Below are positions 4,542 through 24,000 of a stretch of 24,000 nt of DNA, piece after piece (position 1 is the first letter of the stretch; every line of letters begins with the position of its first letter). The stretch is from Candidatus Bathyarchaeota archaeon (GTDB lineage Archaea > Thermoproteota > Bathyarchaeia > 40CM-2-53-6 > RBG-13-38-9): assembly GCA_026394315.1 (NCBI GenBank), contig JAPKYM010000212.1, positions 1 through 24,000 on the forward strand. The letters are read 5' to 3'. The position numbers were made by a program, and so were the translations under genes. The notes below the pieces were generated by a model that had not been told where the DNA came from, searched no databases, and saw only the letters and a program-made list of their open reading frames with translations.

Positions 4542-5621
4542 ATGGTGGAAAAGAGAATCATTCCCATCAATATTTTGCCGCATATGAAAGTGACTGAGCT
4601 AGTAAGCGCTTACGGAGAGTCCCACGCATACAATGCAGGCAGACTCTATGAAGCGTGTAAGCTCTATGAGAAGATGCTTGATGAAGATGCTACGATTGCA
4701 CTTACGTTGGCAGGCGCTATGACACCTGCTGGAATGGGTGGTCCAATAATTAACCTAATGAAGAACGGGTTCATCGACTTTCTAGTATCTACGGGCGCAA
4801 ATCTCTACCACGATCTACATTTCGCCTTAGACCTCCCTCTGTACCAAGGAGACTTTAGAGCTGATGATATTGAACTGCGGAAGAAAGGGATCGTCAGGAT
4901 ATACGACATATTCATACCAGATGAGACTTTACTAGGGACCGACCGGTTTCTCAAAGAAATCTTTCGTTCAGTCAAATTGAACAATCCAATCTCGACAGCA
5001 GAACTCCATCGTATGATCGGGGAAGTTGTATTGAATAGAGCCCAGCGGCCAGACCTGTCGATAGTTGCTCAAGCTGCAAAATACGACGTGCCTATTTACA
5101 CATCTTCTCCTGGAGACTCCTCAATAGGCATGAATCTTAGCGCAGCAAAAATGAGCGGTAGCACAATTACCGTTGATCCAGATCTTGACGTCATGGAAAC
5201 AACCGCTATAGTCTATGCAAGTAGTAAGAATGGAGCCATAGAAATTGGTGGCGGCTCACCTAAGAACTTCTACCTTCAAACACAACCTCAACTATCACAA
5301 ATACTAGGTATGGATGGTGGGGGACAAGACTTCTTGATCCAGATAACGACGTCCTCGCCCCAGTGGGGAGGGCTCTCAGGCGCAACATTCCAAGAAGCGA
5401 TCTCGTGGGGGAAAGTTAACCCACGTGAACCAAGAAATAATGTGGTCTTATACGCAGATGCAACGATCGCTGCGCCAATACTCTTTGCATATATTATGTC
5501 GACAAGAAAAGGAAAAGCCTTGAAGAGATTGTATGCACAAAGACCCAAGCTTGTTGAGGAACTTCAAAGGGACTACGACAAAAAAGATGAAACAAGGAAC
5601 GTCAAGATGCAGCTTCCCTAA
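4542..5621 (+). CDS. dys: Deoxyhypusine synthase (aIF5A hypusination)
   Basis: 359-aa ORF with ATG start. DHS-family sequence: LTLAGAMTPAGMGG, LVSTGANLYHD, IYTSSPGDSSIG, GGGSPKNF, and the C-terminal WGK region. Confidence 0.9.
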   Translation: MVEKRIIPINILPHMKVTELVSAYGESHAYNAGRLYEACKLYEKMLDEDATIALTLAGAMTPAGMGGPIINLMKNGFIDFLVSTGANLYHDLHFALDLPLYQGDFRADDIELRKKGIVRIYDIFIPDETLLGTDRFLKEIFRSVKLNNPISTAELHRMIGEVVLNRAQRPDLSIVAQAAKYDVPIYTSSPGDSSIGMNLSAAKMSGSTITVDPDLDVMETTAIVYASSKNGAIEIGGGSPKNFYLQTQPQLSQILGMDGGGQDFLIQITTSSPQWGGLSGATFQEAISWGKVNPREPRNNVVLYADATIAAPILFAYIMSTRKGKALKRLYAQRPKLVEELQRDYDKKDETRNVKMQLP

Positions 5622-5643
5622 GACCTTCAGACTCATTAAGAGG

Positions 5644-6330
5644 ATGAACCGACTTGTTGACCAAAAGTTAAAGACAGCGCTACAAGAAGCCGCTAAGAAC
5701 TCGACCGTTGACCCATTTAGAGTTTTAGTGACAACAATTCTATCGCAGAGAACAAGAGATGAGAATACACGTAAGGCTTCAGATCAGTTGTTCTTGTATT
5801 ATCCAGATGTGCGGAGTTTGGCCGGCGCAGACATCAAGCACGTCGAAGATTTGATTCGCCCGTCAGGGTTCTATCACGTAAAAGCCCGTTCAATAATTTC
5901 CGCATCGAAAGTATTGGTCGAGAACTACAATGGCAAAGTGCCAAGAAGCCTTGACAAATTGCTTGAACTCCCATCTGTAGGCCGCAAGACAGCCAATTGT
6001 GTTCTAGCCTATGGCTTCCAGATACCCGCAATTCCCGTGGACACTCACGTACATAGGATTTCGAATCGACTAGCTATAGTCAAGACGAGGACACCTGAGC
6101 AGACTGAACATCTCTTAAGTGTAAAAGTTCAAAGGCGCTATTGGCTTGATCTAAATGAAGAGTTTGTGAGATTCGGGCAAAGAATATGCAAACCCGTAGT
6201 CCCTGAATGTCCAGTGTGCATACTGAAACAATGCTGCTGTTGGTATCGAAGGCATCTAAGAGAGCGGATAACGCAGAAGGCTAGAGGGAAGGCTTCCAGA
6301 GTGAAATCTCACCCTAAAGGTAGTCGCTGA
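5644..6330 (+). CDS. nth: Endonuclease III (HhH-GPD DNA glycosylase with a 4Fe-4S loop)
   Basis: I start at ATG 5644 (MNRLVDQKL...) rather than the track start at 5533, which overlaps the DHS 3' end. Motifs: ILSQRTRDE, HhH LPSVGRKTANCVL, VDTHVHRISNRL, and a Cys cluster C-x6-C-x2-C-x5-C (CKPVVPECPVCILKQCC). The gene ends in a basic tail of about 28 aa. Confidence 0.9.
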   Translation: MNRLVDQKLKTALQEAAKNSTVDPFRVLVTTILSQRTRDENTRKASDQLFLYYPDVRSLAGADIKHVEDLIRPSGFYHVKARSIISASKVLVENYNGKVPRSLDKLLELPSVGRKTANCVLAYGFQIPAIPVDTHVHRISNRLAIVKTRTPEQTEHLLSVKVQRRYWLDLNEEFVRFGQRICKPVVPECPVCILKQCCCWYRRHLRERITQKARGKASRVKSHPKGSR

Positions 6331-7867
6331 TAAGTTTTCCATTTTCTTCTCTTAGCCCTTCGCCACTGATAACTTCAACAACAGTAAGACCTGTAGAAGA
6401 CATAATTACTTCTCCAGTGGACTTCGACTTCGGTTGTATCCCCACAACTCTGATCTTCGCCCCAGCCTTGAGACTTGCAGCCCTTTCCGCAAGATCTCTC
6501 CACAATGAGAGCCTAGCTCTACCGCTACCATCCGTCAGCACCAATGTTGCGACCTTTACATTTTCATTACTTCCGACTTGGACATTCCTTAACACTACAT
6601 CCCCTGAAACTACACCCTCAATAACCACGGGACGAGAGAGATTGCTGAGACTACCAAGCATAACTGGCTTGGGACAACTTGGCACCTTCATTCCGACTAC
6701 CTGTGGATTGCGCGTTAACTTACCAACCCCTCCAACACTCACAAAGAGTTCTCCACCTTTCTCCTTTGCAAGAGCATCACCTACAAGAATGATCTCGTCC
6801 ACATGCACTTCATATACAAACTCCGCCAGCTTGTCCCATAGAAAGAGCCTTACGAGGCCTGTTTCGTCTCCTACAAGTAGAGTTCCACAGCGTCTCGTCC
6901 CACCATCCATTCCCGAAAATTCTCTAATCCCACCCACTTCCACAACTCTGACAAGTAGTGATAGACTCTTTCCCTGTTGAAGATTCTCAATCTTACAGAA
7001 TTTGGGTAGTTTCATTTTTAGATACAGTGGCTTCTCTTTCAGTATTGATGTGATACTGTTATTCCCCAAATGCACTTCTGGTTTGCCTAACATGTCTGCC
7101 TTTACACGTCCACCTATCACCTGCAAAGTGTCGCCCCTTTTGAGATCAATCAGTCCTTGGGCCTTTTCGTTCCAAGCAACGATATTGATTGCTCCTGTCC
7201 CGTCTGTGATTGTTGTCTTAAGGAAACTTCCCTTTTGATCTTCTTTGCTGAAGGTCGAAAACTTAGGCGGTGACTCTACAACCCCTATGATACTTACATC
7301 GGCATCATTCAGTCTTAATTCTTGAAGTTCTGTGAAAAATTCGAAGATATCTGGATAGTCATTATTTCTGGAATCTAGGGGTAAGACCGTTATCTGGCAT
7401 CTGTCTCCTCCGTTGAACTCTGGGATCCCAGACATGCCTTCACGGGTGTATCCGTGTGCAAGCCGAATCAGCCTCCCTTGGAGTTCCCCTACTGCCGTTA
7501 CCTGCTCAGCTTTGCTGTTCCATAATACGCACTTCATCCTTCCAGTCCTATCACCCAAGACTAGCCTGACAAGTTTCCCTGGGGTCCCATCTTGCTTTCG
7601 AAATTCTTGGAGTGGCCACTGAGCGATGACCCTTCCTGTCAGTGTGACATCATTCAGGTTAGTGACTACATCAGCTATCTTGATCTCACTAAAGGTCTTT
7701 CCATCGACTCTTACAAGTAGATCTTGGGCTACGAGCCTCGCGGCTCCTTCATCAGAAAGTAAACCTTGTGCTTCCGCTTTTTTTTTCTCTAGAAGACCTA
7801 GTACCGATTCCCTTGACAGATCCGACCTTTGATCGAGGATCCTTTTTACTATGTGCTCAAGACTCAT
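6314..7867 (-). CDS. RPA-like single-stranded DNA-binding protein with several OB folds
   Basis: 517-aa ORF with ATG start. The N-terminal helical module ends ...LLSDEGAARLVAQDLLV and is followed by repeated units of about 100 aa with an OB-like pattern (V.L.G.V.......F....G......L.L.D.TG....LW). No zinc-ribbon Cys cluster is visible. The call rests on pattern recognition only. Confidence 0.65.
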   Translation of the reverse strand: MSLEHIVKRILDQRSDLSRESVLGLLEKKKAEAQGLLSDEGAARLVAQDLLVRVDGKTFSEIKIADVVTNLNDVTLTGRVIAQWPLQEFRKQDGTPGKLVRLVLGDRTGRMKCVLWNSKAEQVTAVGELQGRLIRLAHGYTREGMSGIPEFNGGDRCQITVLPLDSRNNDYPDIFEFFTELQELRLNDADVSIIGVVESPPKFSTFSKEDQKGSFLKTTITDGTGAINIVAWNEKAQGLIDLKRGDTLQVIGGRVKADMLGKPEVHLGNNSITSILKEKPLYLKMKLPKFCKIENLQQGKSLSLLVRVVEVGGIREFSGMDGGTRRCGTLLVGDETGLVRLFLWDKLAEFVYEVHVDEIILVGDALAKEKGGELFVSVGGVGKLTRNPQVVGMKVPSCPKPVMLGSLSNLSRPVVIEGVVSGDVVLRNVQVGSNENVKVATLVLTDGSGRARLSLWRDLAERAASLKAGAKIRVVGIQPKSKSTGEVIMSSTGLTVVEVISGEGLREENGKLISDYL

Positions 7868-9684: not shown

Positions 9685-10545
9685 TTAGTCTGCCTTCGAT
9701 TCAACTGCTCCGAACCTCTTTGCTATGTGCCAATGCCTCCACGCAAAGAGCTCTGTGCTCTCAACTGCGCTGCCTATTATTGTCGAAACCTCATCTGGGC
9801 TCAGTTTCAGAAGTTCATTGGCAAGACTATTCGGATCTAGTTTCACAGGTGTCACTATAGCGATTCTGTAAGCGTCCACCTGAGTGAGAATGTTTAGTCC
9901 AGATTTGGCCTGCAGTAGAGTGGCTAGTATCAAAGCTAGAGTTTCATTGACTAGGTTACCGAAACATGCATGGATCACTATACAGTTTTCAAAACGTTCA
10001 ATGACTATCTGATCATTTGTTGGCAAGGGATAATCTCGGATATGAGTCTCGACTGTTTCCTTGACTCTTGACGTAGCATTGTCATTGATGTCAAGGTTCT
10101 TCGAGAGTTTTTGGAGTTCCTCACTAGAATCTACGGCCCTCGAGAAGGTGTCTCGAAGTCTGCCTACTTGCATAGCAACCTCATGCTCGACTGGTATTAT
10201 CTCCCCTTCCCAGCTAGGTATCGCTTTCAGAGTCGGTGCTGATGCTTCGACCTCTACACTTAGTTTGTCATCATCGACACATATGACGCGCCAAGTGCTC
10301 CCGTGCATGATAAATTCTGTACCAGTATGGCATCGCCTTGCCACAAACTCCTGATCGAGCGTTCCGAGGTGCCTTTTCAAAGCGAAATCGAACACTTTGT
10401 ACTTCTTTACATCTGGTATCATTGACAGATTCTCATAGTAGTATTTGTGTATTCTCGGAAACTTGGTGTATAGGATCTCAGCGGTCATTCTCACGATTCT
10501 CTGTTGTTGAAGCTGTTGGATGACACTAGAATGTTTTTGGCTCAA
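9685..10545 (-). CDS. Second large fragment of the disrupted Lhr-type helicase (WH plus DEAD-associated domain region)
   Basis: Track ORF of 286 aa. It overlaps the previous fragment by 20 nt in a different frame. Removing one A from the A5 run joins ...GNLEPK to HSSVIQQLQQQ... in frame. Confidence 0.75.
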   Translation of the reverse strand: MSQKHSSVIQQLQQQRIVRMTAEILYTKFPRIHKYYYENLSMIPDVKKYKVFDFALKRHLGTLDQEFVARRCHTGTEFIMHGSTWRVICVDDDKLSVEVEASAPTLKAIPSWEGEIIPVEHEVAMQVGRLRDTFSRAVDSSEELQKLSKNLDINDNATSRVKETVETHIRDYPLPTNDQIVIERFENCIVIHACFGNLVNETLALILATLLQAKSGLNILTQVDAYRIAIVTPVKLDPNSLANELLKLSPDEVSTIIGSAVESTELFAWRHWHIAKRFGAVESKAD

Positions 10546-11581
10546 GATTTCCGTAGGGATACGCTCCTCTCACAATGTTGTATGCTTCATCCAAAGCTAT
10601 CTTTCTTGTATCTAGGATTAAACCTACAATTTGGTGGGCCAGAACATCCAACGCATTATAATGTATCTTGAGTTCCTCAAGTTGACCCTTCTTAGCACGG
10701 CTTACCAGTACTGCTGACTCTAGTATGTCATCAGCCCACGTTGTAATTATGTGTCCGCGTGGTGAAGAGGTTAGTTGATGACCACTCCTCCCTATCCTTT
10801 GGATCATTCTGGTGGCTTCTCTCGGAGACATGTACTGGATTACAAGATCTACTGTTCCTACATCTATTCCTAGTTCAAGGGACGATGTGCAGATTACACC
10901 TTTGACTTTACCTTCTTGAAATTCTGCCTCAACTTGCTCCCTTATTTCTCTGGATAGTGAATCGTGGTGAACCTTCACGAGAATCTTGCAGCCTATTGCA
11001 TTTATTTGTGAACCTAGCGCTTCTGCATGTTCCCTTGTATTTGTGAATACGAGTGTTGAACGTTGCTCAGAGATGAGCTCACATATTCTTCTTACGCGAC
11101 CAACTGTTGCTGGTGGAATGCCTAGATTCTTTGCATCATCGTAGTCGCTTTTACTTGGATTCACATGTTCGACTTTGACGTCCAAGTTGCGGAGTTCAGC
11201 AGACTTCAGTATACGTGCTTCGCCTGATGAACCGGTGAGAAACTTTGATATCTTCTCAGCCTCACCAACGGTTGCAGAAAGCCCTACTCGTTGAAAATCG
11301 TGGCCAACCAGTCTACGGAGTCTCTCAAGAGCTACTGAAAGCTGTACTCCCCTTTTGTCTGTTGCAAGTTCATGGATCTCGTCAACAATTAGCCATCTAA
11401 CATTTCTTAGATGTTCTTTCATCCTCTTGCCTGGAAGTATTGCCTGTAATGTTTCGGGAGTTGTAATCAGCATATCAGGTGGTGACTTCGCCTGTTTTGC
11501 TCTTGCAGTCGTTGGGGTATCTCCATGTCTAATCTGGATGTCTAGCCCAAGATCCTTGCCACTTTCAAGAAGCCTTCTCAA
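10526..11581 (-). CDS. Largest fragment of the disrupted Lhr-type helicase (RecA1/RecA2 core); listed separately because a gene caller would report it as its own ORF
   Basis: Track ORF of 351 aa. The same frame stays open upstream to about 11735 and there encodes the Walker A APTGTGKT. The fragment contains DEIH, SAT, HHDSLS and QRIGRSGH. Confidence 0.8.
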   Translation of the reverse strand: MRRLLESGKDLGLDIQIRHGDTPTTARAKQAKSPPDMLITTPETLQAILPGKRMKEHLRNVRWLIVDEIHELATDKRGVQLSVALERLRRLVGHDFQRVGLSATVGEAEKISKFLTGSSGEARILKSAELRNLDVKVEHVNPSKSDYDDAKNLGIPPATVGRVRRICELISEQRSTLVFTNTREHAEALGSQINAIGCKILVKVHHDSLSREIREQVEAEFQEGKVKGVICTSSLELGIDVGTVDLVIQYMSPREATRMIQRIGRSGHQLTSSPRGHIITTWADDILESAVLVSRAKKGQLEELKIHYNALDVLAHQIVGLILDTRKIALDEAYNIVRGAYPYGNLEPKTF

Positions 11582-12639: not shown

Positions 12640-13710
12640 ATGAAAAGGTACGACATCGGCATAATGTTCGCGAACGATGAAGAGCAAGATCGACCGATGG
12701 ACCGAGACACATGGCTCCGTGAATGCTTCCCCGAGTGGGGAACTTACCTCAACAGACAAATAGAAGCTGAGAAGGTCGACAAAGGTAAGCTTGTGCTCTG
12801 GTGGTTCGGTGCATGCGCATTCTACATCAAGACTCCAGGAGATGCCAACGTTCTCATCGATAACTACAGTGGTCCATCCCTTTACATCACATATGAGGGT
12901 GGTGGTGGACCTGTAAGGATGAATGGTGCAGAGCGACAAGAATGGATGAGATGTAACCCGCATGTAATAGACCCGTGGGCATTCACGAAAGTAGATGTAC
13001 TGCTATCAACTCACCTGCACAACGATCACTGTGATATCTATACGATAAAGCCACTGATCAAGAATACAAAATGTCTGTTCGTGGGTGCACCCGCATCCTG
13101 TAAAATGTTTGAGATGTATGGAGTTCCAAAAGACAGAATCTTGCGGATGAAGCCAGGGGACAAACATAAGATCAAAGATACCATTATCAAAGCCACGAAA
13201 TCCACAGACTTCTGCGCGCTAAGAGGCGGCGAAGTTAGGCCCGGAAAGACAATAGATGAAGTTGGTCTGAACTACCTAATTGAAACCCCAGCTGGAAACA
13301 TATACCATGCTGGCGATTCTTCATACCACGACTACTACTACAGAGTTGGCAGTGAAAACAAGGTTGACATGGCCCTAATCAACTGTGGAGACAGCCCACC
13401 CAGTTTCACAGATAAAATGTCTTTCGCAGACGCTGCAAGAGTAGCAAACCAGCTGCGAGCTAAGGTTCTCATACCAATGCACTATGATAACTGGGCAATA
13501 GCCGAGGGTGATCCAGCGGAGCTCGAAGTTATAGTGAAAATGAAGTACCCACATCTTAAGACATTCATCATGAAATGGGGCGGACGGTTCGAGTGGCCGA
13601 CAGATGCGGACAAAGGAAGATACATATACCCAAGACAAGAGGAGAGAGCTAGACCCGAACTATCATGGGAGTACGGAGACAAGCCACGCGTAAAACTTGT
13701 TGTGGAGTAA
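12640..13710 (+). CDS. ulaG: UlaG-like metallo-beta-lactamase-fold hydrolase (L-ascorbate-6-phosphate lactonase family)
   Basis: 356-aa ORF with ATG start. It is collinear with my memory of E. coli UlaG along the whole length: FPEWGTYLN..IE.EKV..G...WWFG, THLHNDHCD, GVPK.R....KPGD, NYL.ETP.G..YH.GDS.Y..YY...G.....D.AL, TDKMS.AD, AKVLIP.HYD.W, and the C-terminal YPR. Confidence 0.85.
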   Translation: MKRYDIGIMFANDEEQDRPMDRDTWLRECFPEWGTYLNRQIEAEKVDKGKLVLWWFGACAFYIKTPGDANVLIDNYSGPSLYITYEGGGGPVRMNGAERQEWMRCNPHVIDPWAFTKVDVLLSTHLHNDHCDIYTIKPLIKNTKCLFVGAPASCKMFEMYGVPKDRILRMKPGDKHKIKDTIIKATKSTDFCALRGGEVRPGKTIDEVGLNYLIETPAGNIYHAGDSSYHDYYYRVGSENKVDMALINCGDSPPSFTDKMSFADAARVANQLRAKVLIPMHYDNWAIAEGDPAELEVIVKMKYPHLKTFIMKWGGRFEWPTDADKGRYIYPRQEERARPELSWEYGDKPRVKLVVE

Positions 13711-14645: not shown

Positions 14646-15965
14646 CTACTCAAGCGATTTGGTCAAGTTTACGTCTTTTACCAAGACGTATGGAGTTAGA
14701 GTCGGAAATTCAACCTCCCACCACTTTACCCAATACTGCTTATCTGACAGACAAGAGATGTTTCTCAGTAATCGCGGGAGGTTCTCACTGATCCTTAAGC
14801 CCTTTAGAGACTGGACTATCTCACCGTCAGCAACACGGAATATGCCGTCCCTGCAGACTGTTGAGAAGTCACCAGTTCTGTAATTCTGAAATCTCGTGTA
14901 CCAGTTGTTCGTTATGAAGATACCGTTATCGAGATCACTAAACAATCCCTCTTCGCTAGCACCTCCTCGCTCAACAATGATATTCCATGGCTGAGGTACA
15001 ATCCAGCCTGCGTTTGCTGTACTGCGCCTACCGAACTTCTTAGCGGTTGAGGAGTTGTGAAGAAAACTCTGAAGAACTCCATTCTTTATGACGATTGTTT
15101 TCTGGGTCGGTACGCCTTCGTCATCAAATGCTCTTGAATTCAAACCATCGCTCAGCGTCCCGTCATCAACGAGAGTGAGACTCTTGGAAGCCACCCTCTT
15201 TCCTAACATGCCTGCCATAAACGAGAGTCCCGCATCAACGTTGAAGGCAGACGCAGCAGATATCACGTCATTCATGAGATTGGCAACGACATTCGGTCCA
15301 AGAATCACATCGTACTTCCCTGGTTTGCCTTCGAAAGGGTTGACTGCTTTCTTAGCTATCTCAGCCGCTGCCTTGCCAGCTTGTTCAGGATGAAAATCCT
15401 TCTCTGATCTTGCACATGAGTTGGATTGACCTGAGGCCTCGATGCCAGAGAAAGCTCGAACGGAGATCTCCAGAGAAGACAAGCTGTCATTTCCTGACGC
15501 TCCTGCTGAGGTCTCTATTCCTATACTTGAACTTCTGAAAAACAGACTGCCAGCGACTCTGTCGGCACCACTAGAAACAGCACTTGAGATGGCGTCCTTC
15601 ACATACTTTACTAAGTTGGAGCTCTGAACGGAGAGACCGGCCTGTGGAGACCTATACTTGAATGGGCCTGCTGGAAGACTTACATAGTTTTTATTTGGTC
15701 TAGTTGTTTTCGCGATTTTTAGAAGTTGGCTGATTGATTGCTTCATCGAACCTTCGGAGAGATCCTCTATTACGCCTATTGCGACCTTTTTCCTAATAGA
15801 AACCATGACGCATATTGTGGTGGAACGCCAAGATTGACTTACCGTGACCTCATTATTTGCGAATCGTATCATTCTTGCGTCTTCTCTAACATAGGTGGCA
15901 GCTACGTTATCTGCTCCTCCTCGCTTGCCTTCTCTGACTGCTAATGAAGCTAGACTGTTCTCCAA
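14646..15965 (-). CDS. pmbA: PmbA/TldE-family metalloprotease partner subunit
   Basis: 439-aa ORF starting 4 nt after the tldD stop, with an apparent TTG start. Sequence is TldE-like throughout (GADNVAA...R.ANNE, the C-terminal GDFS...G..V..GEI). It lacks the HExxxH motif, as expected for the PmbA partner. Confidence 0.85.
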   Translation of the reverse strand: MENSLASLAVREGKRGGADNVAATYVREDARMIRFANNEVTVSQSWRSTTICVMVSIRKKVAIGVIEDLSEGSMKQSISQLLKIAKTTRPNKNYVSLPAGPFKYRSPQAGLSVQSSNLVKYVKDAISSAVSSGADRVAGSLFFRSSSIGIETSAGASGNDSLSSLEISVRAFSGIEASGQSNSCARSEKDFHPEQAGKAAAEIAKKAVNPFEGKPGKYDVILGPNVVANLMNDVISAASAFNVDAGLSFMAGMLGKRVASKSLTLVDDGTLSDGLNSRAFDDEGVPTQKTIVIKNGVLQSFLHNSSTAKKFGRRSTANAGWIVPQPWNIIVERGGASEEGLFSDLDNGIFITNNWYTRFQNYRTGDFSTVCRDGIFRVADGEIVQSLKGLRISENLPRLLRNISCLSDKQYWVKWWEVEFPTLTPYVLVKDVNLTKSLE

Positions 15966-15969
15966 CGCT

Positions 15970-17394
15970 TTAGAGCCCTCCTAATCTGACCTTTCTCAGC
16001 CTAATGTCTGGGCCGCCTGTCCAGACAGGTGCCCCCTGTTGGGGATCTCCTTTCCCACAAGTTGCGGCAGTAAAGGAAAGATCCCTGCCAACTGCATCAA
16101 CACTTTCGTAGAGGCGGGGCGTAGTTATCTCTAGAACCGGGTTCCGTACAAGATGCGCAAGTTTGCCTTTCTTAATCAAGTAAGCTTCTAAACCGACATA
16201 TCGTTGGCTGAATCTTCGATCGTCTATGTTCCACTCCATGAAACTCTTGATGTAGACTCCTTTTGGTATTGACTCCAACAGCTCTTCAAAACGGTGATCT
16301 CCTCTATCCATGTATGTGTTGGACATCCGGATTATCGGTTCTCGGCTATAGGAGATCGTCCTTGCCGCTCCATTGCTTTCGATACCAAGTTCCGCAGAAG
16401 TTTCTCTGTTGTGTAAGAAGGTATTCACTATTCCTCTTCTTATGAGTTCGCGACGTCTGACTTTGACCCCCTCATCATCATAGAGATTGTAACCATATGA
16501 TTGCGGGATTGTTGGGTCATCAACAACCGTGACCTGAGAGCTTCCGATTCTCTTTCCCAGCATCTCAGTGCTAACGAAGGATTCGCCAGCTGCGGCAGCT
16601 TCACGCCCAAGTATTCTATCAGCTTCGAATGGATGGCCGCATGATTCATGGGATACTATTCCAACGACTTCGCTTCCTAAAACTACATCCAGCACATTCT
16701 TAGGAGGCTTTCTTCCTTCGCTTAGGATTGAGGCGAGAATATCAGCTTCCTCTGATGCAAGTTCAATTAGATTCCAAGCTGAGACAGCTTCCCAACCTGA
16801 ACTCGCTCCTTTCTTATTGAACCGTTGAACGGTTCCTTTGCCTGGGCTGTATGCAGTTACGATATAGGAGAAGGCTATTCTTGGAATCTTCGAGGTTATG
16901 AATGTGCCCTCGCTGTTTAGAAATGTTTGTTCGTTGATTGTTTCGCTTAGGGTCAAAATCCTGGCAGGGAACTTGACCCCTCTTCTAGGTTTGAAACACT
17001 TGTCCGCCTCAAGAATAAGCTTAAGCCTATCCTCCATACCCACAGACGTCAATTTCTGTTTCTGTTGGACTTCCCATTTGTCTCTATTAGTTTTCACATT
17101 AGAAAGGACGGTGGGTTTCCTCAAGGTTTCTGCAGCAACACGTGCCATGGTCGCAGCCGTTAGTACGGTTTCTGTGACATTGCTTTTGCTGAGTTCATTT
17201 GTTGATGCGAATACTAATGAGCCATTGATTATCAACCTTATACCTATACCTAGTTCAGTGAGAAAGGCCGAGAATTGAGGTTCGCCGTTCTTTATGGAGG
17301 TTGAGCGGCTCACGAGCTTCTGTATCCTAGCTTCCGAATATGTTGAACCTAAGCTTCCAGCGTAGTCAACAACGAATCTCGCGATATCTTCCAA
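15970..17394 (-). CDS. tldD: TldD-family zinc metalloprotease
   Basis: 474-aa ORF with an apparent TTG start. It carries the HExxxH motif in VSHESCGHPFEADR, a conserved DDEG, and the C-terminal CGKGDPQQGAPV. Confidence 0.9.
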   Translation of the reverse strand: MEDIARFVVDYAGSLGSTYSEARIQKLVSRSTSIKNGEPQFSAFLTELGIGIRLIINGSLVFASTNELSKSNVTETVLTAATMARVAAETLRKPTVLSNVKTNRDKWEVQQKQKLTSVGMEDRLKLILEADKCFKPRRGVKFPARILTLSETINEQTFLNSEGTFITSKIPRIAFSYIVTAYSPGKGTVQRFNKKGASSGWEAVSAWNLIELASEEADILASILSEGRKPPKNVLDVVLGSEVVGIVSHESCGHPFEADRILGREAAAAGESFVSTEMLGKRIGSSQVTVVDDPTIPQSYGYNLYDDEGVKVRRRELIRRGIVNTFLHNRETSAELGIESNGAARTISYSREPIIRMSNTYMDRGDHRFEELLESIPKGVYIKSFMEWNIDDRRFSQRYVGLEAYLIKKGKLAHLVRNPVLEITTPRLYESVDAVGRDLSFTAATCGKGDPQQGAPVWTGGPDIRLRKVRLGGL

Positions 17395-17685: not shown

Positions 17686-19224
17686 TTGACCAAGGATCTT
17701 AGAGAAGCGATAGTAGAGATCACGTTGGCTGGTTACCAGTTGGAAGCGGAAGCCTTCGAGCTATTGCGTATTCTCCAAAGTGAGGAGCATTTCGAATTCA
17801 TTATTAACGAATCGTTAGTTGAAGCAAATAGCCTCTCTCCGAAACCGATCGTGATTACCCGCGATCTGGTCGAGAAAGTGCTCAGCAAAATGGCAAAAGG
17901 GAAGGAAGTTGCAGGAGATCATGTTCACCTAAGGTCATCAGTACCGCTTGCTAAAGAGATCAGTAGTGATATTGAGATAATCAAAGACGGAAATGAAGAA
18001 GCTGATTCAAGCGGAACAATAGGTGATTTCAACCAATACTTTAGGGACAGGTATGAAAAACTCTCTATAATCTTGCATGAGAGATTAGATTTCAGGGATG
18101 CACATGATGTCACCACCGCTCTCGAAGCAAAGTACGGCGCAAAATTGAAGATGACTGCTATAGTCATGAACAAACGTGAAAGAATTGATCAAGTGTTCCT
18201 AGAGGTTGAGGATGTAGAAAGCACGGCGACAGTACTCATCACTTCTAGCAAAAGTAGAGAACTCTTCGAAATGGCACGGAGAATTCTTCCAGATCAAGTA
18301 ATCGGAATAGAGGCGGTCCGAGGCAAGGGTGACCTTTTCATAGCAGAACAGGTTATCCTGCCAGATGTCCCTGAAAAAAGGTCACCAAAAGCAGACTGCC
18401 CTGTCAATGCTATTCTGCTATCTGATATTCATGTAGGCAGCAAGACCTTTTGTTCTGATGCTTTCGAAAGACTAGTAATGTGGCTCAATGGCAAGATTGG
18501 AACACCGAAGCAAGTAGACGCTGCCTCAAGAACTAAATATGTGATAATAGCAGGAGACCTCGTAGATGGCATCGGTGTCTACCCACGTCAAGAAGAAGAT
18601 TTGATCATCACAAGCATTCATGAGCAATACAAGAAGGTCGCTCAGTATATCGAACAAATTCCTGATTATGTAGAGATCATAGTCATCCCAGGCAATCACG
18701 ATGCTGTAAGACAAGCGCTCCCCCAACCAGCAATCTCTAAGGAGTTCGCAGAATCAGTCTATGAAGTTAGGAATGTAAGGAGCCTAGGAAATCCCTCTGA
18801 GGTAAAGATACATGGAATACACTTCCTGCTATATCACGGAAGGAGCTTGGATGACGTAATAGCCAGAGTGCCTAACCTCAGTCTTCGAACTCCTGAGAAA
18901 GCAATGGAGTATCTACTGAAATGTAGACATTTAGCACCTGAGTATGGTGCAAGGACCTCGTTGGCACCTGAGTGCAAAGACAGACTCATTATCACCAAAG
19001 TCCCAGATGTCTTTCAAGCTGGCCACATCCATGTTGCAAGTAACTCATCTTATAGGGGCACTCTAATTGTGAACTGTGGCGCTTGGCAAGAACAAACTGA
19101 ATATCAAAGGAGAATGGGAATCGATCCTACACCAGGAGTTATGCCTATCCTGAACCTTCATACACTAGATCTGAATATGATGAATTTCATTTCCAGTGAA
19201 GTCGCTATCTCGCCAAACCCGTAG
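17686..19224 (+). CDS. dp1: DNA polymerase II (family D) small subunit DP1 (3'-5' exonuclease, calcineurin-like phosphoesterase fold)
   Basis: 512-aa ORF with an apparent TTG start. It has an N-terminal helical domain, an OB region, then the phosphoesterase motifs LLSDIHVGS, IIAGDLVDGIGVYP, IPGNHD, LYHGRS and GHIHV. Confidence 0.9.
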   Translation: MTKDLREAIVEITLAGYQLEAEAFELLRILQSEEHFEFIINESLVEANSLSPKPIVITRDLVEKVLSKMAKGKEVAGDHVHLRSSVPLAKEISSDIEIIKDGNEEADSSGTIGDFNQYFRDRYEKLSIILHERLDFRDAHDVTTALEAKYGAKLKMTAIVMNKRERIDQVFLEVEDVESTATVLITSSKSRELFEMARRILPDQVIGIEAVRGKGDLFIAEQVILPDVPEKRSPKADCPVNAILLSDIHVGSKTFCSDAFERLVMWLNGKIGTPKQVDAASRTKYVIIAGDLVDGIGVYPRQEEDLIITSIHEQYKKVAQYIEQIPDYVEIIVIPGNHDAVRQALPQPAISKEFAESVYEVRNVRSLGNPSEVKIHGIHFLLYHGRSLDDVIARVPNLSLRTPEKAMEYLLKCRHLAPEYGARTSLAPECKDRLIITKVPDVFQAGHIHVASNSSYRGTLIVNCGAWQEQTEYQRRMGIDPTPGVMPILNLHTLDLNMMNFISSEVAISPNP

Positions 19225-20458
19225 TTCTTCTCACAAAACGAGGCACATATCTGAACAACGGCTTGACCAAACCATCCTCAGACAACGCTTCAATGACAGA
19301 CCGTTCCCCAGCTCCCAGACGCACTTTCTTGGTCCTACCGTACCTCCCGAAGTTTACGACTCTAGCGTTCAGGATCCCCATTATGTCAAGCTCGCTAATT
19401 AGTCCACTAACCCTTCTCTGAGTTAACGGGTCGACCTTGACCTCTCTACACAGTTCTTGATAGACATTGTAGATGTCGCCTGTCACACCATCCTTAGATG
19501 AGTGGCTACCGAAGAGAAAGACGCTTAGGAGCACAAGCTTTGAGTGTAGAGGTAGGGATGTGAGGATCTCAGTTATTTGGTCATGTTCAACCTTCCGCTG
19601 TGCAGTTCTAACATGTTCCTCCGTCACTTCCTCGCAATCACTGCGCTCAGCCAATTCACCAGCAATACGCAGAAGGTCTAGTGCTCGACGTGCATCCCCA
19701 TGTTCGCCAGCCGCAAGTGCCGCACAAAGTCTTACAGCTGACTCTTTCAGACAGCCCTGATTAAATGCAATTCTAGATCGCGTCTGCAAAATATTGCAGA
19801 GTTCATCTGCTAGGTAGGGTTTGAATATGACCTCCTCCTCTCCAAGACAGCTCAGGATTCGTGGATCGAGAAAATCTTTGAAGTGAAGGTCATTGGATAC
19901 GCCTACAAGTCCCACCCAGCCTCCGTGAAGGCTTTCGTTTATTCTTGTTAGTTCATATAGAAGGCTATTTTCTGCGTTGCGTTTGCCTAGTGTATCGATC
20001 TCATCGAGTACTATTAGTAAGCAACATCCCGTCTTTTCGATACCGTCTCTGAACCTGTTAAATAGCTCACCGACGGCCAGTCCTGTGAATGGAACCTGTA
20101 CGCCCATTGAGCGGCAAATCTCAGCAAGAACTCTGTAGTTAGTTCCAGAGAGTCTACAGTTGACATACGACAGCCTGAGTTTTGTTCCCAACTCATTCGC
20201 TTTTCTTCCTAGACTGTCGAGTACGTGTTTCACAACAGCGGTTTTGCCAGTGCCTGTCTTCCCGTATATGAAAATGTTGGAGATCTTAGATAGGGTTAGA
20301 GCTGGAGCCAGCATCTTCCCCAGTCTAGTGATCTCGTATTGCCGGTGAGGTAGATCTTTGGGAATGTAGTCATGTCTGAGAACTTCTCGATTTGAGAATA
20401 TTCTACTACCCGATAGGAATTTCTCGAATATTCCTTCGAGAGCCTCAGAGCTAGGCAA
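19205..20458 (-). CDS. cdc6: Orc1/Cdc6 replication initiator (AAA+ domain plus winged helix)
   Basis: 417-aa ORF with an apparent TTG start. Motifs: L.HDYIPKDLPHRQYEI, Walker A GKTGTGKTAV, Walker B LLIVLDEID, sensor GDARRALDLLR, and a C-terminal winged-helix region. It overlaps dp1 by 20 nt in convergent orientation. Confidence 0.92.
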   Translation of the reverse strand: MPSSEALEGIFEKFLSGSRIFSNREVLRHDYIPKDLPHRQYEITRLGKMLAPALTLSKISNIFIYGKTGTGKTAVVKHVLDSLGRKANELGTKLRLSYVNCRLSGTNYRVLAEICRSMGVQVPFTGLAVGELFNRFRDGIEKTGCCLLIVLDEIDTLGKRNAENSLLYELTRINESLHGGWVGLVGVSNDLHFKDFLDPRILSCLGEEEVIFKPYLADELCNILQTRSRIAFNQGCLKESAVRLCAALAAGEHGDARRALDLLRIAGELAERSDCEEVTEEHVRTAQRKVEHDQITEILTSLPLHSKLVLLSVFLFGSHSSKDGVTGDIYNVYQELCREVKVDPLTQRRVSGLISELDIMGILNARVVNFGRYGRTKKVRLGAGERSVIEALSEDGLVKPLFRYVPRFVRRTTGLAR

Positions 20459-20540
20459 AACCTTTCCACCGATGCGACAATTGCTTCGAAACTGCCCTGT
20501 ATTGATATTAAGAATTTCTGTACATCAAACCCGATAAAGA

Positions 20541-20552
20541 ACAGTGGAAAAG
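20541..20552 (+). promoter_or_regulatory. Mini-ORB-like site in the orc1/cdc6 upstream region
   Basis: acagtggaaaag: the 10-mer cagtggaaaa (20542-20551) is identical to the core of ORB-like element b. It lies about 85-95 nt upstream of the cdc6 start, next to the inverted repeat atgact-N9-agtcat (20556-20576). Confidence 0.3.
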
Positions 20553-20671
20553 TGAATGACTATCAAAGAAAGTCATCCTTGATCGCTCTGAAGAGAACTG
20601 ATTAAATATTACTCGCCTATTTAGCCTACGCCAGATTTGGACGATTCATTATTACCAGGTGTTATTCGTTG

Positions 20672-23305
20672 ATGACCTTTGACTTCGAGAAGGGAGATGG
20701 TAAAAACAAGAAACTGCTAGGAGGAAAGGGCGCTGGACTCTGTGAGATGACTAGAATTGGATTGCCGGTTCCTCCTGGATTTGTTATCTCGACTGAGGTA
20801 TGCCTCGAATACTACAAGGAGGGTGAAAAAGTCCCGAAGGGTCTGATGGACGAAGTAAGGGACCACATAAGAACAATAGAAAAGAAGACGGGAAAGAAAT
20901 TCGGAGATACCCAGAACCCATTACTCGTATCTGTCAGATCTGGAGCCGCCCTCTCAATGCCGGGAATGATGGATACAATTCTAAACCTCGGACTTAATGA
21001 TGAAACTGTAGTCGGGCTCGCAAAGCAGACTGGGGACGAAAGATTCATCTACGATTGTTACAGGCGTTTCATACAGCTATTCTCAAAAATCGCCATGCAG
21101 GCAGATGCAGAGAAATTCGACAAGAAAATTGAAATGCTAAGGGACCGTTCTGGGGCAAAGTTTGACACAGATCTCACAACAGAGACTCTGAAAAAGATCG
21201 TGAAAGAGTACAAGGGATTATGCAAGGATGAGACTGGTAAGGAATTACCTAAGGATCCCTATATGCAATTAGGGATGGCTATAGAAGCTGTCTTTCGCTC
21301 TTGGATGGGAAGAAGAGCAGTTGACTATCGTAAATTCAATAAGATAACTTCTGACATGGCCAATGGAACGGCTGTCAACATCCAGACTATGGTATTCGGA
21401 AACAGAGGTGCAGATTCAGCTACAGGTGTAGCCTTCACAAGGGATCCGGGCACAGGCGAGAACATCTTCTACGGCGAATACCTGACAAACGCTCAGGGAG
21501 AGGATGTAGTCGCAGGCATCAGAACACCGAAACCAATAGTAGAAATGAGGGAGGAACTACCGAAAAGCTATGAAGAGCTATGCAAAGTCCGAGAGATCCT
21601 AGAGAAACACTATAAAGAGATCCAAGACTTTGAATTCACAATCGAGAAGGGCAAGCTCTACCTCCTTCAAACAAGAAACGGAAAAATGAACGCCATCGCA
21701 ACCATCAAAACCTCCGTTGACATGTTCAATGAGAAGTTACTCAGAAAGGACGAGGCCCTTCTGAGAATTAGACCAGACCAAATTGAACAGCTTCTCCATA
21801 GAGCCATCGATCCAAGAATCACAGCAAAGCCTGTTGCGACAGGCCTCGCCGCCTCACCGGGAGCAGCCTCAGGCCAAGTCGTGTTTGACGCTGATACTGC
21901 AGCTGAACTAGGCTCGAAGGGAGAGAAGGTCATTATGGTCAGAGAAGAGACAAAACCCGAGGATATACATGGATTCTTCGCTGCTCAAGGAGTACTAACC
22001 TCGAGAGGTGGAAAGACCTCACATGCCGCGGTAGTTGCAAGAGGAATGGGAAAACCGTGTGTATCTGGATGCGAGCAGATAAAGATAGACAGCCACCTCA
22101 GACTATTTACAATTGGGGAAAAGTCCATCAAAGAGGCTGAAATCATAACTATTGATGGAAGCACTGGGTCAGTGTATGTAGGTGACATCCCTACAGTTGA
22201 GCCTGAGCTGCCAAAAGAACTCGAGCAGATACTCCAGTGGGCTGATGAGAAAAGGAAGCTCGGTGTGAGAGCTAATGCTGACACTCCAGAAGACGCTAGA
22301 AAAGCTCGCAAATTTGGCGCAGAAGGAATTGGTCTTTGTAGGACAGAAAGGATGTTCAATGCTGTAGATAGACTTCCAATAGTTCAGAAAATGATTCTGG
22401 CAGAGAGTGAAGATGAGAGAGCTGAATGTCTCTCAAAGTTGCTGCCTATTCAGAAAAACGATTTTGTAGAAATATTCAAAGCAATGAACGGATTGCCAGT
22501 GACAGTACGCCTTCTTGATCCACCCCTACATGAATTCCTCCCGTCTATGGAGGGACTACTCCGCGAGATAACTGACATGAAAGCAAAGAACCTCGACACT
22601 AAACAGAAAGAAGAGATCTTCAGGAAAGTCAAGGGTTTGGCAGAGGTCAACCCGATGATGGGTCACAGAGGAGTAAGACTTGGAATAACAAACCCAGAAA
22701 TATATGAGATGCAAATTCGAGCAATAATTGAAGCCGCAGCTGACCTCATCAAACAAGGCTATGATGTTAAGCCAGAGATTATGATCCCCCAGGTTTCAAT
22801 GGCATCAGAATTAAACAGTGTCAAGCAAAATCTTGAGAGAATTAGCCAAGAAATCATGAAGAATAGTGGAGTACATGTAAAATACAGTTTTGGAACTATG
22901 ATGGAAGTTGTCCGGAGCTGCTTGACAGCGAGCAAAATAGCTGAGTATGTAGAATTCTTCTCCTTTGGAACCAATGATCTGACCCAAGGAACCTTCTCTT
23001 TCTCGAGAGAAGACGCTGAGAATAAGTTTTTGCCAAGATATCTTGACCAGGGAATACTTGCATTCAACCCATTTGAGACACTAGACAAAGAAGGAGTTGG
23101 AAGATTGATGAGAATTGATATAGAAGATGGAAGGAGAAAGCAAACAAATCTGAAGGTGGGTATTTGTGGGGAACATGGAGGAGATCCTGAATCAGTACGC
23201 TTCTGTAGTACGCTAGGGCTCAACTACGTCTCATGTTCAGTGTATAGAGTTGTTATTGCAAGATTAGCTGCTGGGCAAGAAGTAGTTAAGGCTCATGATC
23301 TATAG
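20672..23305 (+). CDS. ppdK: Pyruvate, phosphate dikinase
   Basis: About 877 aa from ATG 20672 (the track starts one codon earlier at a TTG). Motifs: LLGGKGAGLCEMTRIGLPVPPGF, the phosphohistidine domain TSRGGKTSHAAVVARGMGKPCV, and the PEP-utilising domain GLCRTERMF, FFSFGTNDLTQ and CGEHGGDP. Confidence 0.95.
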   Translation: MTFDFEKGDGKNKKLLGGKGAGLCEMTRIGLPVPPGFVISTEVCLEYYKEGEKVPKGLMDEVRDHIRTIEKKTGKKFGDTQNPLLVSVRSGAALSMPGMMDTILNLGLNDETVVGLAKQTGDERFIYDCYRRFIQLFSKIAMQADAEKFDKKIEMLRDRSGAKFDTDLTTETLKKIVKEYKGLCKDETGKELPKDPYMQLGMAIEAVFRSWMGRRAVDYRKFNKITSDMANGTAVNIQTMVFGNRGADSATGVAFTRDPGTGENIFYGEYLTNAQGEDVVAGIRTPKPIVEMREELPKSYEELCKVREILEKHYKEIQDFEFTIEKGKLYLLQTRNGKMNAIATIKTSVDMFNEKLLRKDEALLRIRPDQIEQLLHRAIDPRITAKPVATGLAASPGAASGQVVFDADTAAELGSKGEKVIMVREETKPEDIHGFFAAQGVLTSRGGKTSHAAVVARGMGKPCVSGCEQIKIDSHLRLFTIGEKSIKEAEIITIDGSTGSVYVGDIPTVEPELPKELEQILQWADEKRKLGVRANADTPEDARKARKFGAEGIGLCRTERMFNAVDRLPIVQKMILAESEDERAECLSKLLPIQKNDFVEIFKAMNGLPVTVRLLDPPLHEFLPSMEGLLREITDMKAKNLDTKQKEEIFRKVKGLAEVNPMMGHRGVRLGITNPEIYEMQIRAIIEAAADLIKQGYDVKPEIMIPQVSMASELNSVKQNLERISQEIMKNSGVHVKYSFGTMMEVVRSCLTASKIAEYVEFFSFGTNDLTQGTFSFSREDAENKFLPRYLDQGILAFNPFETLDKEGVGRLMRIDIEDGRRKQTNLKVGICGEHGGDPESVRFCSTLGLNYVSCSVYRVVIARLAAGQEVVKAHDL

Positions 23306-23310
23306 AGGGA

Positions 23311-23336
23311 CACATACACCTCTATTTCCTCTGGAG
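23311..23336 (-). repeat. ORB-like element a (consensus on the minus strand: ctccagaggaaatagaggtgtatgtg)
   Basis: It is the reverse complement of element b at 23 of 26 positions. Its TCCAG end faces the AT-rich centre. Confidence 0.6.
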
Positions 23337-23488
23337 AATAAAACTCTTTTTAGGTTTTGATATTGATTTTAATATAAAACTCTTTGAATGGTAATTTGTG
23401 ATTGTTCTTTAACTATTTTCTAATCTATTTTTTTTAACTGAACAATCCAAACAATTGATCGGTGAGCATACACAACCATGCAAAATAA

Positions 23489-23514
23489 CTCCAGTGGAAA
23501 AATAGGTGTATGTG
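23489..23514 (+). repeat. ORB-like element b (ctccagtggaaaaataggtgtatgtg)
   Basis: It contains TCCAGTGGAAA, the core I recall for archaeal ORB/mini-ORB Orc1-binding sites. It is the inverted partner of element a across about 150 bp of AT-rich DNA. Confidence 0.6.
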
Positions 23515-23608
23515 TCTGTGAACTTCTGTGAATAAATATTGATTAGGGGCAAGAAACTCGAGGAAATGCATTAATTAGCCATTTTATGTTCACTTTCTGT
23601 GAAGGTCT

Positions 23609-23634
23609 AAATAACCCCTTCATTTCCTCTGCAA
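23609..23634 (-). repeat. Mini-ORB-like element c (shares the 10-bp core atttcctctg with element a)
   Basis: The core at 23622-23631 is identical to 23324-23333. The flanks are only partly conserved, giving about 17 of 26 matches overall. Confidence 0.4.
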
Positions 23635-23722
23635 GCGTACATTCTTCCTATGCAAGCAATTAATAGCATTCACAAACTGATGAAAAATAGGCGAAATAAA
23701 TAAAAGCGTTCACAAGTATTAG

Positions 23723-23736
23723 ATTCACATGTGAAT
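23723..23736. promoter_or_regulatory. Perfect 14-bp palindrome ATTCACATGTGAAT overlapping the start codon of the downstream ORF (candidate operator)
   Basis: Read directly from the sequence. It is the terminal member of an array of seven TGTGAA/TTCACA hexamers between 23517 and 23735. An A/T-rich TATA-like stretch (aaataaataaaa, about 23694-23705) lies about 30-40 nt upstream. Confidence 0.35.
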
Positions 23737-24000
23737 GGCCAACAACGGTGCTTTAGTTTTGCCAGCCCACCGTGTTAAGATTGAGTTCTACGACAAGGAA
23801 GGAGTAAAACATGTAATGGCCATTGAGGGAAATGTCACACGGGAAAAAGTTGGAAAGATTTTGGATTATATTGAACTGATGGGTGGAGTGGCCGCAAATC
23901 TATCCCCAGACAAGCCTATCAGCAGAATTCAACACACTCGGTTCGAGAAGACTCTTTCCTTAGTGCTCTCCAACTTTACTGATAAGACCTTCTTGTCCAA
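23735..24000 (+). CDS. Hypothetical protein, partial (runs off the right edge)
   Basis: Manual translation from ATG 23735: MANNGALVLPAHRVKIEFYDKEGVKHVMAIEGNVTREKVGKILDYIELMGGVAANLSPDKPISRIQHTRFEKTLSLVLSNFTDKTFLS. The frame is open to the window end, which is why the ORF track lacks it. Composition is protein-like, but I recognised no family. Confidence 0.5.
   Translation, partial: MANNGALVLPAHRVKIEFYDKEGVKHVMAIEGNVTREKVGKILDYIELMGGVAANLSPDKPISRIQHTRFEKTLSLVLSNFTDKTFLS

Follow-up and report, generated by a model that had tools for sequence, protein, structure and literature searches.

A probable Orc1/ORB-type replication origin with lineage-specific extras in the Bathyarchaeia

Background

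Bathyarchaeia are abundant uncultured archaea of sediment and soil, and the literature searched yielded no account of how their replication origins are built. The window analyzed here, that is, the whole stretch of 24,000 nucleotides of Candidatus Bathyarchaeota DNA, encodes an Orc1/Cdc6 protein and contains, at a distance of 2.85 kb from the gene for this protein and with one gene between them, a spacer (positions 23306-23734) with inverted repeats around an AT-rich interval. An initial annotation took this spacer for oriC and pointed to the intervening gene as the unusual aspect of the arrangement. The locus raises the question whether such a spacer is an origin at all, considering that the non-adjacent position of the initiator gene speaks against this reading, and, if it is, which of its parts belong to the common archaeal design and which are peculiar to the lineage.

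Results and discussion

Replication and repair genes around the spacer

The calls of cdc6, ppdK and dp1 in the initial annotation are confirmed by Pfam, as is the convergent orientation of dp1 and cdc6. The orc1/cdc6 gene (19205-20458, minus strand; TIGR02928, 403 bits), which encodes the presumed trans-acting initiator, overlaps by 20 bp with the gene for PolD DP1 (17686-19224, plus strand), whereas the gene located between cdc6 and the spacer is ppdK (20669-23305, plus strand; Pfam PPDK). A comparison of the Cdc6 protein with the PDB shows that it is far closer to 2V1U (4e-112) and 2QBY_A (2e-110) than to Orc1-3 (1e-53) or to the Orc1-2/ORC2 class. It is an Orc1-1-type ortholog of the ORB-crystallized ORC1 of Aeropyrum pernix (2V1U) and Orc1-1 of Sulfolobus solfataricus (2QBY_A). 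The window additionally codes for an RPA-like multi-OB protein, an HhH-GPD glycosylase and an Lhr-type helicase; together with DP1, these proteins make the neighborhood rich in functions of replication and repair, which counts in favor of an origin.

The core promoter region of cdc6 (20505-20552, minus strand) includes the invariant TGATGTACAGAAATTCTTAATAT (20505-20527, minus-strand reading) and, upstream of it, a moderately conserved half-ORB, TTTTCCACTG (20542-20551, minus strand). By itself, the 10-mer CAGTGGAAAA found between cdc6 and ppdK does not exceed chance level in the window; given this, and the moderate conservation of the half-ORB, it is classed as a promoter element and was rejected as a part of the origin.

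Three ORBs in the spacer downstream of ppdK

A repeat search detected in the spacer an inverted repeat with arms of 28 nt (23309-23336 and 23489-23516) that are 89% complementary and separated by 152 nt; reading of the letters bears out the earlier statement that, within these arms, 23311-23336 is the reverse complement of 23489-23514 at 23 of 26 positions. A 21-mer taken from the left arm, with up to 3 mismatches allowed, matches just the two arms in the 24 kb (and was matched in 0 of 100 dinucleotide shuffles), and the two arms are also the sole occurrences of the core TCCNNNGGAAA in the window. Read outward from the AT-rich interval between them (hereafter the DUE), both arms have the form TCCAG(A/T)GGAAA-N4-GGTGT, with TCCAGTGGAAAC-N3-GGGGT at the equivalent places in related genomes. 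This is the archaeal ORB form, namely the dyad TCCAGNGGAAA and a G-string, in agreement with the layout published for ORBs, in which a dyad, TCCA-N2-3-GGAAA (recognized by the wH domain), is combined with an asymmetric G-rich element (recognized by the ISM).

With a position matrix for which the ORBs of the relatives served as the sole source (consensus TTCCAGTGGAAAnggAGGGGT), three ORBs are found in the window, all of them within the spacer: 23311-23338 (minus strand, 29.5 bits), 23487-23514 (plus strand, 24.1 bits) and 23609-23636 (minus strand, 21.8 bits). Elsewhere in the 24 kb the matrix yields at most 10 bits, and the mean of the null maximum over 200 shuffles is 6.2. The first of the three, ORB-L (23309-23336, minus strand; minus-strand reading TCCAGAGGAAATAGAGGTGTATGTGTCC), starts 4 nt past the stop codon of ppdK, with the dyad (23325-23335) adjoining the DUE and the G-string equivalent GGTGT (23316-23320) on the distal side; it is conserved in seven genomes and class-wide. 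The dyad of ORB-R (23489-23516, plus strand; CTCCAGTGGAAAAATAGGTGTATGTGTC) likewise adjoins the DUE (23490-23500) and is followed by GGTGT at 23505-23509. ORB-L and ORB-R are located on opposite strands, with the dyads pointing inward to the AT-rich interval, and in the window both have GGTGT in place of the canonical GGGGT.

The third box, ORB3 (23609-23636, minus strand; minus-strand reading TGCAGAGGAAATGAAGGGGT), has the orientation of ORB-L, the canonical G-string GGGGT (23614-23618) and, at 23623-23633, a dyad that contains a single mismatch. The third copy of the repeat core, ATTTCCTCTG, had been correctly placed at 23622-23631; this 10-mer alone is at chance level, but in its context it is part of a full ORB with a high score and a GGGGT element, and we therefore count it as a third ORB. 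A degenerate fourth copy claimed at about 23555-23567 did not survive this analysis: it scores less than 6 bits with the matrix and falls in an unconserved stretch of the seven-genome alignment.

Conservation of the ORB pair across the Bathyarchaeia

A search with the Cdc6 sequence places the window in the Bathyarchaeia and yielded 39 related loci, with Cdc6 identity of 47-84%. The six closest genomes have the same gene order, and in the alignment of the spacer from the seven genomes, ORB-L, ORB-R and ORB3 are kept while most other positions drift. The conservation of the repeats in relatives, on which the earlier proposal could be checked, extends beyond this group: exactly one inverted (-,+) ORB pair is present in the window and in 35 of the 39 related loci, the inner spacer measuring 143-165 bp in every case. 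The genes around the pair vary. It lies by the 3' end of ppdK in the clade of the window, by the cdc6 promoter in L005-L013, L022-L030, L038 and L039, and, in L014-L021, L036 and L037, next to dp1, at the 3' end of this gene and 2.4 kb upstream of cdc6; in L005-L008 and L032 the origin adjoins cdc6, without ppdK. The ORB pair thus persists whatever its flanks, and ppdK represents a clade-specific insertion that separates cdc6 from the origin and is outside the mechanism. The arrangement that had been highlighted as unusual is thus real but minor as an oddity, given the relatives that lack ppdK at this place. Judging from the gene orders, adjacency of the initiator gene and the origin has been lost at least twice independently in the class, with different intervening genes in another clade.

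The same comparison bears on two readings of the arms that have nothing to do with initiator binding. Under one of these, the arms would form the stem of a long hairpin in RNA or DNA, be it a structure or terminator in the 3' UTR of ppdK, a non-coding RNA or a cruciform, and the 89% complementarity of the arms in the genome of the window is what such a structure calls for. The arms are, however, 152 nt apart, and an Rfam search of the spacer produced no family match (best E = 0.46), nor did one of the whole window, in which no tRNAs were found. More importantly, the arms do not covary: in 36 loci, the within-locus agreement between them is 17.9 of 28 positions, compared to 18.2 expected under independence, and at variable positions it is 0.27 vs 0.31 expected, that is, there are no compensatory changes. 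It follows that each arm is an independent protein site rather than one side of a hairpin or a transposon end, and we consider pairing of the arms to be extremely improbable.

Equally improbable is the other reading, under which the 28-bp arms are the terminal inverted repeats of a MITE-like non-autonomous transposon of about 208 bp, although a MITE would have such a size (208 bp), be AT-rich inside and end in inverted repeats. There is no flanking target-site duplication (the flanks read ...tatagagg and tgtgaact...), the unit is found at orthologous positions class-wide, and it is conserved just at the ORB consensus positions, with no covariation between the arms. It is also present as a single copy in the window. 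We searched metagenomes with the 26-bp element of the window, made degenerate at the three positions at which the arms differ, and among 241 million records detected it in one other contig, which carries both arms of the same locus, is 99.8% identical to the window and comes from the organism of the window itself. With a single matching contig, the objection that the element could be a dispersed repeat fails within the records searched; in the window and in these metagenomes the element is confined to this locus. Taken together, the missing covariation of the arms and the missing target-site duplication effectively refute the hairpin, cruciform and terminal-inverted-repeat interpretations.

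Nucleotide skew provides a further comparison. After correction for the coding strand, and within 10 kb on either side, the skew of the pooled loci changes at the ORB pair in the expected direction (GC3 +0.053, AT3 -0.037), with 23 of 31 loci positive. Counted by clade, the loci being non-independent, this is the case in approximately 11 of 17, which is not significant, and in the clade of the window itself the value is about zero or negative; the skew is accordingly not counted in favor of an origin.

Fixed-position boxes in the DUE

The interval between the paired ORBs (23337-23488, 152 bp) was described as strongly AT-rich, and so it is: its GC content is 0.243, compared to 0.448 for the window, and it holds the AT-richest 120 bp of the window (GC 0.20; the next lowest value is 0.283), which begin at 23337, the first base past ORB-L. 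The T8 run (23428-23435) and the inverted repeat attgttc (23401-23407) and gaacaat (23440-23446) are where they had been reported. Of the 12-bp direct repeat ATAAAACTCTTT, the first copy at 23338-23349 is correct, but the second copy is at 23374-23385 rather than at 23384-23395.

Alignment of the DUEs indicates what this direct repeat is. Its two copies correspond to two box positions, one adjoining ORB-L and one internal. The first (23338-23349, minus strand; reverse complement AAAGAGTTTTAT) corresponds, in the DUEs aligned by eye, to the rGAGT box that adjoins the cdc6-side ORB in relatives. The second is part of an internal box at a fixed position (23374-23395, minus strand; reverse complement ATTACCATTCAAAGAGTTTTAT), which is a degenerate version of the class-wide TACC-N4-5-GGAGTA. 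Among 36 aligned units, GGAGTA is the most enriched 6-mer of the DUE: it is present in 9 of 19 clade groups, whereas the null distribution has a mean of 0.8 and a maximum of 3. With distances counted from the inner boundary of the scoring window of the cdc6-side ORB, GGAGTA lies between -48 and -50, with one exception at -58, and TACC comes before it, at positions -55 to -58. The window has TTACC at -56 (23390-23394, minus strand), followed by the degenerate AGAGTT, and its DUE boxes are generally degenerate relative to those of the relatives. In many clades, TGTAYA/TATACA is additionally found near -92. Conserved boxes at fixed positions within the DUE appear to be a new lineage-specific feature.

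A winged-helix gene with an adjacent ORB and palindrome

Beyond ORB-R, the spacer leads to an uncharacterized winged-helix (wH) gene, the 5' part of which occupies 23735-24000 on the plus strand (alternative start TTG at 23760). Directly distal to ORB-R is a direct pair of GTGAA half-sites (23518-23533, plus strand; GTGAACTTCTGTGAAT), in which GTGTCTGTGAAC is conserved in the seven genomes. It is followed, at 23589-23603, by the palindrome TTCAC-N5-GTGAA (TTCACTTTCTGTGAA), a putative operator of the wH protein that is conserved in the same alignment and lies 5 bp from the scoring window of ORB3. The promoter region of the wH gene (23669-23735), with blocks conserved in the seven genomes, contains TTCAC half-sites at 23669 and 23709, the TATA-like AAATAAATAAAAG at about 23695-23707 and the palindrome TTCACATGTGAA at 23724-23735. 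Altogether, there are 8 GTGAA/TTCAC half-sites in the 231 bp between 23510 and 23740, compared to 0.63 expected. In the 609 kb of the loci, TTCAC-N5-GTGAA occurs in 22 copies, compared to 0.5 expected, and 20 of the 22 are within 300 bp upstream of a wH gene. Class-wide, the palindrome is found at approximately -180 and an ORB at approximately -155 before the wH-gene homolog, even where this gene is 5 kb away from the ORB pair; the position and orientation of ORB3 are kept in the close clade.

The complete wH protein, available from contig L040 (1355-1807), consists of 150 aa and is predicted (pLDDT 73.6) to fold into two domains, a small beta-beta-alpha domain at the N-terminus and a winged helix-turn-helix at the C-terminus. 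Foldseek search of the PDB yielded generic ArsR/RosR/PadR/BlaI regulators alone (E ~5e-3, TM ~0.4); the BlaI-type match in Pfam is below the threshold (22.1 bits vs the cut-off of 22.6), and NCBIfam search gave no match. Since only generic wHTH proteins are matched, a tie to Cdt1, WhiP or Orc is not indicated. At E<=1e-10, the family comprises about 300 clusters (50% identity), and all matches that come with an organism name are from Bathyarchaeia.

ORB3 and the palindrome belong to a separable module that always accompanies the downstream wH gene, and the pairing of an ORB with TTCAC-N5-GTGAA upstream of this gene seems to be a new lineage-specific extra. Most likely, the module serves as the promoter/operator of the wH gene, at which both Orc1 and the wH protein would be bound; in the simplest reading, the wH protein would bind DNA and regulate its own gene, with Orc1 likewise present on the promoter. 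A more specific role is conceivable but rather unlikely, namely that of a Bathyarchaeia-specific origin accessory factor which binds the TTCAC/GTGAA sites abutting the G-string sides of ORB-R and ORB3 and, together with Orc1, controls licensing or couples its own expression to initiation, as an analog of UBP/ucm or WhiP with a different fold. Under this reading, TACC-N4-5-GGAGTA in the DUE would be a second, orphan element for protein binding.

From the behavior of ORB3 one can arrive at a different interpretation of the entire locus: the ORBs could be Orc1/Cdc6 operators that control the flanking genes (the wH gene and, ancestrally, cdc6) at a dormant or vestigial origin that does not fire. 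Given that ORB3 accompanies the wH gene even 5 kb from the ORB pair, at least one ORB behaves like a promoter element; furthermore, the cdc6 promoters of the soil clade contain a mini-ORB, TTCCACTGGAA, directly after the TTAA box, Orc1 paralogs are known as transcription regulators (PMC9738581), and local skew gives no signal in the clade of the window. An operator role, however, leaves unexplained why the ORB pair with its AT-rich spacer of constrained length is kept no matter whether ppdK or dp1, each with its 3' end, or cdc6, with its 5' end, is the neighbor, and on the side of ORB-L, just past a stop codon, there is no gene to regulate. We regard the operator interpretation as improbable for the locus as a whole.

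A model of the origin and its implications

The combination of three ORBs, two of which form an inverted pair, the AT-rich DUE, a nearby gene of the Orc1-1 type and class-wide conservation supports the original proposal, and the spacer 23306-23734 is in all probability a chromosomal replication origin (oriC) of a member of the Bathyarchaeia, of the Orc1/ORB type. The arrangement ORB(-)/DUE/ORB(+) is the published minimal functional pattern, and each ORB is individually required in Sulfolobus; by its sequence, the layout in the window appears to be the same, and under the rules of Ori-Finder-Arch the locus would be a 'structure-match' origin.

By analogy with oriC1 of Sulfolobus and Ori1 of Aeropyrum, we infer that initiator binding, MCM loading and firing occur at this spacer. 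Monomers of the Orc1-1-type protein would bind ORB-L and ORB-R, with the winged helix contacting the TCCAGNGGAAA dyad and the ISM of the AAA+ domain contacting the G-string. Because the boxes are inverted with the dyads inward, the two initiators would face each other over the length-constrained AT-rich DUE of about 150 bp. In their ATP form they would bring MCM to the DUE, which would melt, and bidirectional replication would start from there. A caveat comes from Thermococcus kodakarensis, for which a published study (PMC5663688) describes the canonical oriC and Cdc6 as dispensable, so that a canonical sequence would be no guarantee of use.

The known model of archaeal initiation is unchanged by this locus. 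What the window and its 35 relatives provide is a testable architecture for the class, consisting of the ORB consensus, a spacer of 143-165 bp, the DUE boxes and the wH gene with its palindrome. This architecture could be used to anchor genome closure, estimates of growth rate from metagenome coverage (peak-to-trough ratio) and reconstitution in vitro. Pipelines for origin prediction that require adjacency of the initiator gene and the origin should allow for the loosening of this linkage, on at least two occasions, in the Bathyarchaeia. Among the features of the lineage, the module of the wH gene, palindrome and ORB3, the GGAGTA box of the DUE and the constrained spacer appear to be worth following up.

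Comparison with known archaeal origins

The closest parallels are oriC1 of Sulfolobus (ORB3-DUE-ORB2, Orc1-1-dependent) and Ori1 of Aeropyrum pernix. These origins share with the window inverted ORBs that flank an AT-rich DUE of about 130-150 bp, with inward dyads in the arms of the window; the ORB design of a dyad and a GGGGT-type G-string located a few bases past GGAAA; a further ORB beyond the paired ones; a DUE that contains a conserved box; and an initiator orthologous to Orc1-1/ApORC1. Unlike the case of Sulfolobus, the initiator gene of the window is removed from the origin and located behind ppdK, the paired ORBs contain GGTGT, and a palindrome and a wH gene go together with the third ORB, a feature that is undescribed there. 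The boxes of the DUE also differ. The ucm of Sulfolobus, TTATACAAAC, which marks the ucm/UBP-containing origins of the Sulfolobales and Desulfurococcales, is an essential mid-DUE box bound by UBP; it is absent from 23337-23488 even when 2 mismatches are allowed, and the DUE box of the class of the window, TACC-N4-5-GGAGTA, is different.

The ucm/UBP pair and WhiP at oriC3 of Sulfolobus have in common with the wH module the concept of a non-Orc DNA-binding protein with sites in or beside the origin, and WhiP is, moreover, encoded adjacent to it. The proteins themselves are not alike: WhiP is a tandem-wH, Cdt1-like protein and UBP is saddle-shaped, in contrast to the single-wHTH protein of 150 aa in the window. 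The WhiP repeat TACTACTACTAC, which forms the inverted repeats of the WhiP-type pattern IR(+)/ucm/IR(-), is absent from the spacer, and the palindromes associated with the wH gene are outside the DUE, unlike ucm.

In the oriC region of Pyrococcus and other Thermococcales, Cdc6 and PolD dp1 belong to one neighborhood, as is the case in the window. The Pyrococcus ORBs differ from those described here in their length of 34 bp, a G-string located further from the dyad and the presence of many 13-bp mini-ORBs, and a second cluster of ORBs is found inside dp1, whereas dp1 of the window has no ORB score. In its first 12 nt, CTCCAGTGGAAA, ORB-R is identical to the opposite-strand reading of the ORB2 oligonucleotide of P. 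furiosus, and P. furiosus ORB oligonucleotides that share CTCCAGTGGAAA bind Cdc6 in EMSA. With respect to the position of the initiator gene, the window can be compared to oriC of the Hyperthermus butylicus type, which lacks an adjacent initiator gene ('Type III: structure-match' of Ori-Finder-Arch); in the window, the initiator is still one gene away, and the comparison of the loci shows its separation from the origin to be recent and specific to the clade.

Variation of the probable origin and of locus arrangement

The two arms of the ORB pair, the inverted initiator boxes that flank the AT-rich DUE, match at 23 of 28 positions in the window (23309-23336 and 23489-23516), compared with 16-20 of 28 in nine other compared loci, and share a non-consensus tail, GGTGTATGTG, which recurs identically in the right-hand box (ORB-R) of the related locus L001. 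This likeness and the common tail may reflect either gene conversion between the arms or a lineage-specific preference of the Orc1 ISM, the part of the AAA+ initiator that contacts the ORB G-string.

The position of the origin elements varies among related loci. In L014-L021, L036 and L037, the ORB pair follows dp1 (~7400-7650), 2.4 kb upstream of cdc6, and the gene that separates the ORB pair from cdc6 in this dp1-side clade looks, on reading the sequence, as if it encodes V-ATPase subunit F. The module comprising the winged-helix (wH) gene, ORB3 and the palindrome is located ~5 kb downstream of cdc6 (~15,600-16,050) in the soil clades (L010-L012, L029, L038 and L039), where it stands apart from the ORB pair. 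No ORB pair was found within 10 kb upstream of cdc6 (at 10001) in L020 and L024, the cdc6 of which shows 63% identity to the query. MAG BA_22 is the source of both L020 and L014, and so it contains two strains unless cdc6 is present there at two loci. Two contigs labeled as bacterial, L011 (DASPWZ010000012.1, 'Dormiibacterota bacterium') and L026 (JAJPJY010000066.1, 'bacterium'), carry dp1 and a canonical ORB pair in addition to an archaeal cdc6, and are probably mis-binned or mislabeled archaeal contigs.

Convergent with the wH gene is a gene for a conserved hypothetical protein of 164-169 aa (L040, 845-1339, plus strand, just past the end of the window; L001, 5762-6271); searches of Pfam and NCBIfam returned no match for this protein.

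Promoter elements

The core promoter of cdc6, TGATGTACAGAAATTCTTAATAT (within 20505-20552 of the window), is invariant in 7 genomes. In soil-clade loci (e.g., L038, 9930-9960), its equivalent, GTACGAGAACCCTTAA, is directly followed by a mini-ORB, TTCCACTGGAA, a juxtaposition that suggests autoregulation of cdc6 by Orc1. The mid-DUE box of the soil clade, GTATACAGGATAACCTAAAT, looks like the same promoter-type element as the cdc6 promoter box.

Gene neighborhood

A 517-aa multi-OB-fold protein (6314-7867, minus strand; tRNA_anti-codon, REPA_OB_2 and CDC24_OB3 domains) is likely an RPA-like single-strand-binding protein and, together with an HhH-GPD glycosylase (5533-6330), Lhr, DP1 and Cdc6, constitutes a replication and repair gene neighborhood. 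The Lhr-type helicase is encoded on the minus strand (9685-11581) in two ORFs that overlap by 20 bp, one containing DEAD, Helicase_C and the start of WH_Lhr (10526-11581), and the other the remainder of WH_Lhr and DEAD_assoc (9685-10545); a frameshift could account for this split, as could a pseudogene or an error in the assembly.

Within an ORF for a metallo-beta-lactamase-fold protein, a short triplet repeat, GACTACTACTAC, occupies 13324-13341 on the plus strand. The above-chance matches to the TACTAC repeat of the type associated with WhiP, the tandem-wH origin protein of Sulfolobus, come only from this triplet repeat, which is coding sequence and almost certainly has no relation to replication.
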